Source: a virus | Strand: one strand, 5' to 3' | IMG/VR virus record: IMGVR_UViG_3300035698_009173 | Length of the DNA: 41,203 bases | Part shown: in pieces, positions 35,592 through 36,797 of the stretch | How the letters are laid out: every line of letters starts with the position of its first letter | Numbering within the stretch: the first letter of the stretch is position 1 | The notes under the pieces: generated by a model | What the model was told of the DNA's origin: nothing | Databases searched by the model: none | What the model saw: only the letters and a program-made list of their open reading frames with translations | Made by a program: the position numbers and the translations under genes

Positions 35592-36797
35592 ATGAAACGC
35601 GTTGCGAAGTTGATTATGGTGACCGGAAGCAACAATAACAAGTTCTACGACATGGTAGAGAACGACGATGACTCAATAACGTCTACCTGGGGGCGCGTGG
35701 ATGTCACGTCCACAGTGACGAACTACCCTGTTGGTAAGAAAAAGTGGGAAACACTTTACAATAGCAAAATTAAAAAGGGGTATCAAGACGTTACACACCT
35801 TAAAGCGACCTCTTCCGGCCCATCAACTATCATCGAAATACCTGATCTGACCATTCGTAAGTTTGTTAATAGCCTTTTGCAGTTTGCTAACAAGGCTGTG
35901 CAAGCAAACTACACGATTTCTGCCGACGCAGTAACCGATGCACAGATTAAAGAGGCACAAAACCTGTTAGACGCACTTGCAAACATGGCCAAGAAGGATA
36001 AAATACCTGAAAAGCTCAATGATACCCTGCTTCAACTGTACACTGTGCTCCCTAGAAAGATGAAAAAGGTTCAAGATCACCTATTTACCGACACTTTTTC
36101 TGATGATATCTTTAAAAATAAGGTCAGTGTAGAACAAGACCTCCTAGATGTCATGGCTGGTCAGGTGCGCACAGGTCAAATTTCTAAAAGTTCAGCAAAT
36201 CATGACAAGGATATCCTCGAAGCGAACGGAATGATGATCATACCGGTCTCTGCAAGCGACATACCGTACCTTAAATCCAAACTTGGACAGGATGCGGGAC
36301 AATATCGAAGCGCATTTAAGGTTATTAACGCCAAAACACAAGAAAAATTTGACAAATTTATTGGTAAGTCGTCAAACAAGAGTACTCACCACTACTGGCA
36401 CGGGTCGCGCAACGAAAATTGGTGGTCAATTCTCGGTTCTGGCCTCATATTGCGCCCAACAAATGCAGTGATCACCGGCAAAATGTTTGGATATGGCCTG
36501 TACTTCGCAGACAAGGCGCGTAAGTCCCTTGGGTACACATCGTTACGTGGGTCTTACTGGGCACGCGGGGCGTCTTCTACAGGCTTTATGGCGCTCTACA
36601 AGGTACACCTGGGAGATTACCTCAAGATCAAGCATCATCAGTCGTGGTGTAGTCAACTTTCGTACGATTCCTTGCGCAGGCGAGGAGATTATGATTCTTT
36701 ATTCGCAGAAGGTGGTGCGGATCTCCGCAATAATGAGTATATTATCTACCGACAAGAGCAGTGCACGGTGCGCTACATTGTCGAACTAGGAGGATGA
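35592..36797 (+). CDS. PARP-like ADP-ribosyltransferase (WGR domain, helical domain, H-Y-E catalytic domain)
   Basis: N-terminal NKFY..TWGRV (WGR domain); catalytic block HYWHGSRNENWWSILGSGLILRPTNAVITGKMFGYGLYFADKARKS and NNEYIIYRQEQ closely matching the PARP1 signature (LLWHGSR..GYMFGKGIYFAD..NEYIVY); RBS GCAGGAGG; promoter TTTACA 35547-35552 / TATACT 35569-35574. Confidence 0.8.
   Translation: MKRVAKLIMVTGSNNNKFYDMVENDDDSITSTWGRVDVTSTVTNYPVGKKKWETLYNSKIKKGYQDVTHLKATSSGPSTIIEIPDLTIRKFVNSLLQFANKAVQANYTISADAVTDAQIKEAQNLLDALANMAKKDKIPEKLNDTLLQLYTVLPRKMKKVQDHLFTDTFSDDIFKNKVSVEQDLLDVMAGQVRTGQISKSSANHDKDILEANGMMIIPVSASDIPYLKSKLGQDAGQYRSAFKVINAKTQEKFDKFIGKSSNKSTHHYWHGSRNENWWSILGSGLILRPTNAVITGKMFGYGLYFADKARKSLGYTSLRGSYWARGASSTGFMALYKVHLGDYLKIKHHQSWCSQLSYDSLRRRGDYDSLFAEGGADLRNNEYIIYRQEQCTVRYIVELGG

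Follow-up and report, generated by a model that had tools for sequence, protein, structure and literature searches.

Which type of PARP, or poly(ADP-ribose) polymerase, is carried by a phage-like element, and what would switch it on? The question is raised by one gene in IMG/VR virus record IMGVR_UViG_3300035698_009173, a stretch of 41,203 nucleotides (here called the window) that belongs to a metagenomic contig of 45,259 bp (ENA ERZ27316532; Logan SRR8526178). An earlier note on this DNA, made from the sequence alone, had described the gene as a eukaryote-like PARP with WGR, helical (HD) and ADP-ribosyltransferase (ART) domains, encoded in an early-type phage operon. We consider it probable, at roughly 60%, that the gene encodes a minimal clade-1-type PARP, catalytically competent and built like PARP2 and PARP3 from WGR, HD and ART, that is borne by a huge phage, activated by nucleic-acid ends and dependent on NAD+.

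The mechanism that we envisage is modelled by analogy on PARP1-3 and on the WGR-PARPs of Herpetosiphon and Clostridioides difficile, which are DNA-dependent and make poly(ADP-ribose) in vitro (PMC8120803, PMC4245714). The WGR domain would bind nucleic-acid ends or nicks, and this binding would relieve the autoinhibition exerted by the HD. The ART domain could then use NAD+ to ADP-ribosylate the PARP itself, nearby proteins and possibly nucleic-acid ends. Early in infection, such modification might mark or regulate DNA or RNA transactions, be it in replication, repair or host takeover. An eraser, should the signal be reversible, would be encoded elsewhere in the genome or supplied by the host.

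Architecture and active site of the PARP

The open reading frame (ORF) list places the gene at 35592..36797 on the + strand, with an ATG start, the stop codon included and a product of 401 aa. Its translation contains NNNKFYDM, TSTWGRVD, HYWHGSR, ITGKMFGYGLYFADK and NNEYIIYRQEQ; the frame and the peptide strings quoted in the earlier note are present exactly. A public gene call (P0001, 381 aa) begins at Met21 of this protein and cuts away the first WGR strands (35592-35651). The longer start, the ATG at 35592, is supported by the conservation of residues 7-19 among PARP homologs. Further, a Shine-Dalgarno sequence, AGGAGG (35581..35586, +), can be read from the sequence 5 nt 5' of this ATG.

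The ART catalytic domain occupies residues 212-401 (36225..36794, +), and the protein ends two residues beyond the last ART strand. Pfam PARP (PF00644) matches residues 242-399 (E=1.3e-21) with 77.5 bits, well over the gathering cutoff of 26.7. In an alignment of 55-57 homologs with 43-73% identity, all 55 aligned homologs match the same Pfam catalytic domain, and the three residues of the H-Y-E triad are invariant: His270 (cac, 36399-36401), Tyr304 (tac, 36501-36503) and Glu382 (gag, 36735-36737). The triad aligns with the corresponding PARP2 motifs, so the earlier reading of an intact active site holds. Likewise invariant are W269, S272, R273, M298, K311, S312 and Y315, among which we take M298, K311, S312 and Y315 to be the equivalents of PARP1 M890, K903, S904 and Y907. 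Two residues before the catalytic Glu, N380 is an invariant Asn among the homologs, at a position where PARP2 has Tyr in the alignment; this Tyr is presumably PARP1 Tyr986, in the acceptor site.

Membership of the PARP family, as opposed to another ART family, is borne out by a phmmer search against solved structures, which returned chains of PARP2, PARP1 and PARP3 exclusively, with PARP2 and PARP1 as the top relatives. Its alignment pairs ywHGSr with lwHGSr, GlYFAD with GiYFAD, and nNEYiiY with yNEYivY. The family profile reaches about 1e-25 against PARP1 and PARP2, and is far weaker against the catalytic domain of PARP4 (7.8e-9) and against tankyrase (about 5e-5).

For the two domains that precede the ART, Pfam is less decisive when this protein is searched alone: unlike PARP, which passes its cutoff, WGR scores 19.4 bits (cutoff 22) and PARP_reg 15.6 bits (cutoff 26.8). 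Among the homologs, 25 of 55 match Pfam WGR individually (E<=1e-3), the best at 4.7e-8, and the WGR region has its own invariant residues (G34, R35, W52, K59, K62, G63 and Y64). Against full-length human PARP2 the family profile is colinear, with an overall E=1.3e-25. Profile positions 12-75 fall on PARP2 132-200 (the WGR), 80-319 on 242-482 (the HD and the first half of the ART), and 376-402 on 557-583 (the strand of the catalytic Glu). The profile alignments traverse the HD of both PARP1 and PARP2 (profile positions 80-319 and 111-353).

An AlphaFold2 model derived from the family alignment (mean pLDDT 91.6, pTM 0.88) divides the protein in the same way, with a beta-rich region at 1-66, a lower-confidence linker at about 71-80, six helices within 86-211 and an ART fold from 212. 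The WGR domain (residues 1-75; 35592..35816, +), recognised through Pfam matches of homologs, the profile and the model, comprises four beta strands and a helix and carries W33-G34-R35. The HD, of the PARP_reg type (residues 86-211; 35847..36224, +), is modelled as a six-helix bundle with helices at 86-106, 116-135, 139-152, 160-163, 171-201 and 208-211, all with pLDDT above 85. In the PDB, Foldseek ranks highest the WGR-CAT chains of PARP1 bound to a DNA double-strand break (8g0h, 7s6m; 4dqy_C, TMq 0.70) and full-length PARP2 as it bridges a break (6x0l). Taken together, the Pfam WGR matches of homologs, the colinear alignment with PARP2 and the high-confidence model confirm the WGR-HD-ART reading; within it, the HD is present as a predicted domain, assigned from profile and model, with its Pfam match under the curated threshold.

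Relatives, operon and genomic neighbourhoods

How unusual is such an enzyme outside eukaryotes? Over the whole protein there is a match to PHROG 23333 ('polymerase'; E=1.5e-58, 199.7 bits), in which residues 11-399 fall on positions 14-382 of the 383 in the profile. A tblastn search of deposited phages found full-length homologs in 15 of 16 matching records, with coverage of 96-100% and just 26-39% identity to the window PARP. Homologs annotated 'poly (ADP-ribose) polymerase' occur in Cellulophaga phages phi4:1 and phi17:2, Xanthomonas phages XacN1 and Xoo-sp13, and Klebsiella phage vB_KpM_FBKp34. A large protein collection holds at least 4,374 relatives at E<=1e-5, including chromosomal Bacteroidota genes with about 50% identity. 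Among viral contigs, at least 133 in IMG/VR encode PARP relatives, and an exact scan for the motif WHGSRNENW gave at least 120 matches.

Phage PARPs have also been recorded in the literature. Perina et al. (2014) listed PARPs with a conserved H-Y-E in Cellulophaga phage phi4:1 and Aeromonas phage Aeh1 (PMC4245714). Iyer et al. (2021) noted jumbo-phage PARPs and proposed that they modify host proteins (PMC7824862), and the survey of Iyer et al. (2022) counted PART/PARP among the commonest viral ART families (PMC9503650). The phage DNA-repair factors listed in 2024 work on gut jumbo phages include 'PARP1' (PMC11662467). Calling the gene eukaryote-like, as though this were an oddity, was consequently an overstatement, given its bacterial and phage relatives, its PHROG family and this earlier work. 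The window PARP is a sound annotation within a large, catalogued phage and bacterial family and no discovery; no feature sets it apart, and it adds no new principle.

The PARP gene is probably the first of a four-gene operon transcribed from a host-type promoter. One nucleotide separates its TGA stop from the ATG of d1 (36799..37137, +; 112 aa), a translationally coupled gene of a rare family. Nine nucleotides separate d1 from d2 (37147..37494, +; 115 aa), and d2 overlaps d3 (37491..37835, +; 114 aa) by ATGA at 37491-37494. The earlier description of three small coupled downstream ORFs is thus accurate. The scan found no terminator-like site 3' of the PARP gene. These small ORFs, and a 110-aa ORF upstream of PARP (35209..35541, +), recur in two related lineages, L199 and L200, with PARPs 69-71% identical to that of the window. 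In both, the order DUF4406, Zn-ribbon ORF, 110-aa ORF, PARP, d1, d2, d3 and tRNA array is kept, and this synteny marks d1, d2 and d3 as real conserved genes. The 110-aa ORF has orthologs with 39-53% identity in L199 and L200; those of d1 are 60% identical and lie directly 3' of PARP, and those of d3 are 53-62% identical. For d2 there is a weak ortholog (31%) in L200 and an ORF of the same size at the same position in L199.

The functions of the small genes are less readily read. None of d1, d2 and d3 has a Pfam or PHROG assignment, and in PADLOC-DB v2 no family matches the PARP, d1, d2, the 110-aa ORF or the nearby gene for a Major Vault Protein (MVP)-like protein; d3 has a marginal match there to LmuC (7.6e-4). 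With no PADLOC match, membership of the PARP in a known defence system was rejected. Homologs of d1 numbered three by word search and 22 representatives by exhaustive HMMER search among 1.84 billion proteins. Matches of d1 to giant proteins with cadherin and ankyrin repeats look spurious. The sole lead is P0130, a single d1-family protein that is fused to PF18143 (HAD_SAK_2), the HAD domain of Swiss-Army-Knife RNA-repair proteins.

An early-type operon with its own promoter, as claimed in the earlier note, is plausible. The 50-nt gap 5' of PARP contains a candidate sigma-70-like promoter, TTTACA-16-TATACT (35547..35574, +), with 10 of 12 consensus positions, and sigma-70 consensus sites stand directly 5' of two tRNA arrays (37832-37859, 12/12; 40701-40728, 11/12). 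The sites before the tRNA arrays, perfect or nearly so, make it plausible that host-type sigma-70 promoters are used on the element, and suggest a host with canonical -35 and -10 promoters. However, promoter-like sites in the scanned region as a whole are not enriched (22 against 19.5 +/- 5 in shuffles).

Comparing neighbourhoods across the family tells more about the possible role of the enzyme. ORFs were called in 82 PARP loci, which were dereplicated at 85% PARP identity to 49 lineages, and five genes on each side were clustered. The commonest neighbour, present in 22 of the 49 lineages, is a TARG1-like macro gene of about 145 aa, located immediately 5' of PARP on the same strand (examples are L045:9527-9964 and L025:9561-9968). 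For a representative, the match to human OARD1/TARG1 spans the whole protein (E=1.2e-27), and the copy in L025 passes Pfam Macro. Judged from these sequences, a writer-eraser pair is typical of roughly half of phage PARP lineages, and the literature searched yielded no description of such a pairing. Other recurrent neighbours in the TARG1-paired phages, as read from cluster representatives, look like a DNA polymerase III alpha subunit, a PD-(D/E)XK nuclease, primase, ThyX and a GIY-YIG endonuclease, which points to a replication module as the context of the PARP in this macro-bearing subclade. The macro gene is absent from the window and from its nearer relatives L001-L014. Its slot is held in the window by the 110-aa upstream ORF; a hidden macro eraser in this or another window ORF was sought with Pfam and a macro HMM, and both were negative.

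These patterns bear on the idea that the PARP is a host-takeover enzyme in the manner of T4 Alt, ModA and ModB. Such an enzyme would modify host proteins (RNA polymerase, translation factors), or burn NAD+, constitutively and independently of nucleic-acid breaks, with the WGR as no more than a general tether to nucleic acid. The proposal of Iyer et al. for jumbo-phage PARPs (PMC7824862) is of this kind; the host-type promoter-like site 5' of the gene fits early expression, and a window without an eraser fits one-way modification. Yet the strict retention of WGR and of an autoinhibitory HD argues for regulated activation, the frequent adjacency of an eraser in other phage lineages argues for reversible signalling, and the PARP is of the H-Y-E class where the T4 enzymes are R-S-E. 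We therefore hold host takeover by constitutive modification to be unlikely. Because WGR and HD are strictly retained and TARG1-type pairing is frequent, we favour regulated, reversible signalling over constitutive, toxin-like activity. The roles offered in the earlier note, modification of host or phage proteins or NAD-linked anti-defence, are guesses.

The lineages without the macro gene have a different setting. Within 10 kb of PARP, L001, L002, L008, L010, L014 and L016 have an RNA ligase or RtcB, and L200 has RtcB, whereas the macro-bearing subclade never has RNA-repair genes near PARP. In the window, RtcB (28708-29847) and an RNA ligase (22616-23302) lie about 6 kb and about 12 kb 5' of PARP, and tRNA arrays directly follow the PARP operon. 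The family can accordingly be seen as two groups, one TARG1-paired and located in replication modules, the other macro-less, including the window, and located near RNA-repair genes and tRNA arrays. Replication in one subclade and RNA repair and tRNAs in the other both suggest nucleic-acid transactions as the arena in which these enzymes act.

Might the enzyme then act on nucleic-acid ends themselves? PARP2 and PARP3 ADP-ribosylate DNA terminal phosphates in vitro. On this alternative, terminal phosphates of DNA or RNA would be the substrate, and the modification would serve phage repair or counter-defence, for example by capping broken ends or cleaved tRNAs. The RNA ligase and RtcB genes of the macro-less lineages and of the window, the tRNA arrays after the operon and the fusion of one d1-family member to an RNA-repair HAD domain all speak for it. 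So does the TARG1-type eraser that is paired with PARP elsewhere, as erasers of this type are established to reverse phosphate-linked ADP-ribosylation of nucleic acids (reviewed in PMC8385414). However, this is circumstantial neighbourhood evidence, accessory genes of huge phages cluster anyway, and the association with RNA repair is absent in the macro-bearing subclade. We consider dedicated end modification clearly improbable.

Our preferred reading, a huge-phage PARP activated by nucleic-acid ends and acting in a regulated manner, also has points against it, which we gather here. DNA is perhaps not the activating ligand, since the subclade of the window sits near RNA-repair genes and not replication genes. 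No Macro, PARG or ARH gene was found in the window by Pfam on about 50 ORFs, and a macro HMM built from the phage neighbours, run on the six-frame translation, together with tblastn, likewise gave nothing; the earlier statement that no PARG or macro partner is visible stands. Owing to N380, chain elongation may differ from that of PARP1 and PARP2. The promoter at 35547-35574 is plausible as a consensus match only. The element is most likely a huge phage, judged from its relatives, with no structural gene in the window. Finally, phage PARPs are common in large phages, yet the literature searched contained no experimental, biochemical or genetic study of any of them. For such a study, the neighbourhood data may help to choose a model.

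The element and its MVP-like gene

What kind of element carries the operon? The window encodes, beginning at its 5' end, an SNF2 helicase (8774-10768) with matches to the helicase portions of the defence proteins ZorD, DpdE and DrmD, a sigma-70-family factor with regions 2 and 3 (12305-13069), and an ArdC-like antirestriction or zincin-peptidase protein (13580-14491). These are followed by an ORF of 745 aa for which Pfam, PHROGs and PADLOC give no match (17460-19697, +), an SPFH protein (20518-21390), the RNA ligase, a glycosyltransferase (24701-25435), a PcfJ-like protein (27384-28637) and RtcB. On the - strand lie an IMPDH/GMP-reductase-like protein (31468-32454) and a 527-aa metallophosphatase (32451-34034). 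A DUF4406/nucleoside 2-deoxyribosyltransferase (NDT)-like gene (34197-34610, +), whose place 5' of the PARP block is conserved in L199 and L200, precedes the PARP operon (35592-37835, +), and an MVP-like protein of 834 aa (38155-40659, +; MVP_shoulder 8.8e-23, Vault_3 3.1e-10) follows it. The window holds eight tRNAs. A further tRNA-like gene at 40921-40997 was called 'tRNA-???' by ARAGORN (anticodon 'at') and matches the Rfam tRNA family at 40.5 bits. The G+C content is about 0.47-0.50 in 1-15000 and 0.34-0.43 in 15000-41203, a drop that suggests mosaic origin or different gene modules. A megablast search of 30000-41203 against deposited phages returned no match; the element has no close sequenced relative.

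With Pfam and PHROG scans finding no structural phage gene in the 41 kb, and with chromosomal homologs in Bacteroidota at about 50% identity, the window could be taken for a piece of bacterial chromosome or of another mobile element, and the PARP for a cellular stress-response or defence gene. Against this, the relatives that come closest in the databases are viral contigs of 100-480 kb in IMG/VR, together with a huge-phage record of 462 kb; the content is typical of huge phages, with dense tRNA arrays, its own sigma factor, RtcB, RNA ligase and ArdC; and PHROG matches are present where a PADLOC defence match for the PARP is not. PARP relatives lie on IMG/VR contigs of up to 482 kb, and the top deposited match is the 462-kb uncultured huge phage. 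A non-phage origin is therefore exceedingly unlikely. The earlier claim of phage encoding is upheld by these relatives, but not by any phage structural gene in the window itself.

The gene that follows the PARP operon raises a further question, since in eukaryotes an MVP shell houses a PARP. The MVP shoulder of the vault binds NAD+ and ADP-ribose, and PARP4 resides in the vault (PMC12280208; bioRxiv 10.64898/2026.05.01.722283). In the window, the MVP-like gene lies 1.3 kb downstream of PARP, inside a tRNA array between tRNA-Gln and tRNA-His. Could the two genes be a phage version of the MVP shell and its PARP4? The Pfam matches of the MVP-like ORF to MVP_shoulder and Vault_3, and the NAD+ and ADP-ribose chemistry of the vault, would be in line with this. 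So would gene order: in two further, divergent lineages of huge phages (LR756500/L089 and L025/L113), MVP again comes after PARP, on the same strand and no more than 10 kb away.

A wider comparison speaks against a module. MVP homologs with 40-54% identity are found on 37 IMG/VR contigs and 131 contigs of bacterial genomes (Myxococcota, Bacteroidota, Candidate Phyla Radiation (CPR) and others), the phage MVP loci having been gathered by a search with a 3-sequence alignment. PARP occurs in the flanks of two of the 37 phage MVP loci (3/24 dereplicated lineages when the window is counted) and of none of 80 bacterial MVP loci; conversely, MVP lies within 10 kb in 2 of 81 PARP loci. No MVP-bearing contig is among the WHGSRNENW matches listed (at least 120). 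In the syntenic lineage L199 (PARP 71% identical), the place of MVP in the tRNA array is taken by a radical-SAM/SPASM gene set, and there is no MVP. The PARP itself ends at the ART, lacks PARP4-type accessory regions and leaves no room for a C-terminal MVP-interaction domain, and its similarity to PARP1 and PARP2 (1e-25) greatly exceeds that to PARP4 (8e-9). With these frequencies and the absence from L199, PARP-MVP as a general module was rejected, and we regard a phage counterpart of the MVP-PARP4 assembly as extremely improbable.

Other vault components were sought as well. An Rfam search beside MVP and RtcB gave tRNAs only, and no vault, Y or other structured RNA, and Pfam scans found no TROVE/TEP1-like gene in the window. 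A 2026 preprint relates the NADase domain of TEP1 distantly to TIR and NDT folds; the resemblance of the DUF4406/NDT-like gene to the vault component set is probably coincidence. The sole published survey of phage MVPs reported no PARP in its two genomes (bioRxiv 10.1101/2023.11.10.566534). The commonest neighbours of phage MVP, as read from cluster representatives, look like a P-loop kinase (6/24 lineages), RNA ligase and metallophosphatase. The adjacency of PARP and MVP most likely reflects variable cargo in an accessory hot spot. It is very unlikely that a WGR-PARP and an MVP-like protein form a vault-like NAD+/ADP-ribose compartment in some huge phages. If they did, the phage vault would be a counterpart in prokaryotic viruses, even a source, of the eukaryotic association between MVP and PARP4. 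The MVP-like gene is more unusual than the PARP, and no conserved functional tie connects the two.

Comparison with known ADP-ribosylation systems

How, then, does this PARP compare with systems already described? Its counterparts among the phage PARPs of PHROG 23333, including that of the uncultured huge phage LR756500, are also about 400 aa long and likewise arranged as WGR-HD-ART. Many of those phages have an adjacent TARG1-like eraser, however, which the lineage of the window does not. The closest bacterial relatives are Bacteroidota proteins annotated 'ADP-ribose polymerase', with about 48-50% identity. For one of these, from marine bacterium AO1-C, the gene stands alone on the chromosome, flanked by Tex and a CCA-adding enzyme, whereas the window PARP is part of an operon of small ORFans on a phage-like element. 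The PARPs of Herpetosiphon aurantiacus and C. difficile CD160 have the same minimal architecture of two or three domains and the H-Y-E triad.

Human PARP2, PARP1 (WGR-CAT) and PARP3 are colinear with the window PARP through WGR, HD and ART, have identical HGS, YFAD and NEY motifs, and are its top structural matches. Set against PARP1-3, however, the window PARP is only about 20% identical and lacks the zinc fingers, the BRCT domain and the N-terminal tail. Its ART is shorter than that of PARP2, in which the Tyr and Glu blocks are about 18 residues further apart, and Asn (N380) replaces the Tyr that PARP1 and PARP2 have two residues before the catalytic Glu.

The eukaryotic vault, composed of MVP, PARP4, TEP1 and vault RNA, has NAD+/ADP-ribose chemistry in common with the window, where an MVP-like gene lies near the PARP; the linkage is unconserved, however, and the window PARP is without the accessory and MVP-binding regions of PARP4. 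T4 Alt, ModA and ModB are likewise phage-encoded, NAD+-dependent modifiers and presumably act early. These enzymes, in contrast, belong to the R-S-E, cholera-toxin-like ART clade, have neither WGR nor HD, and show no profile similarity to the window PARP.

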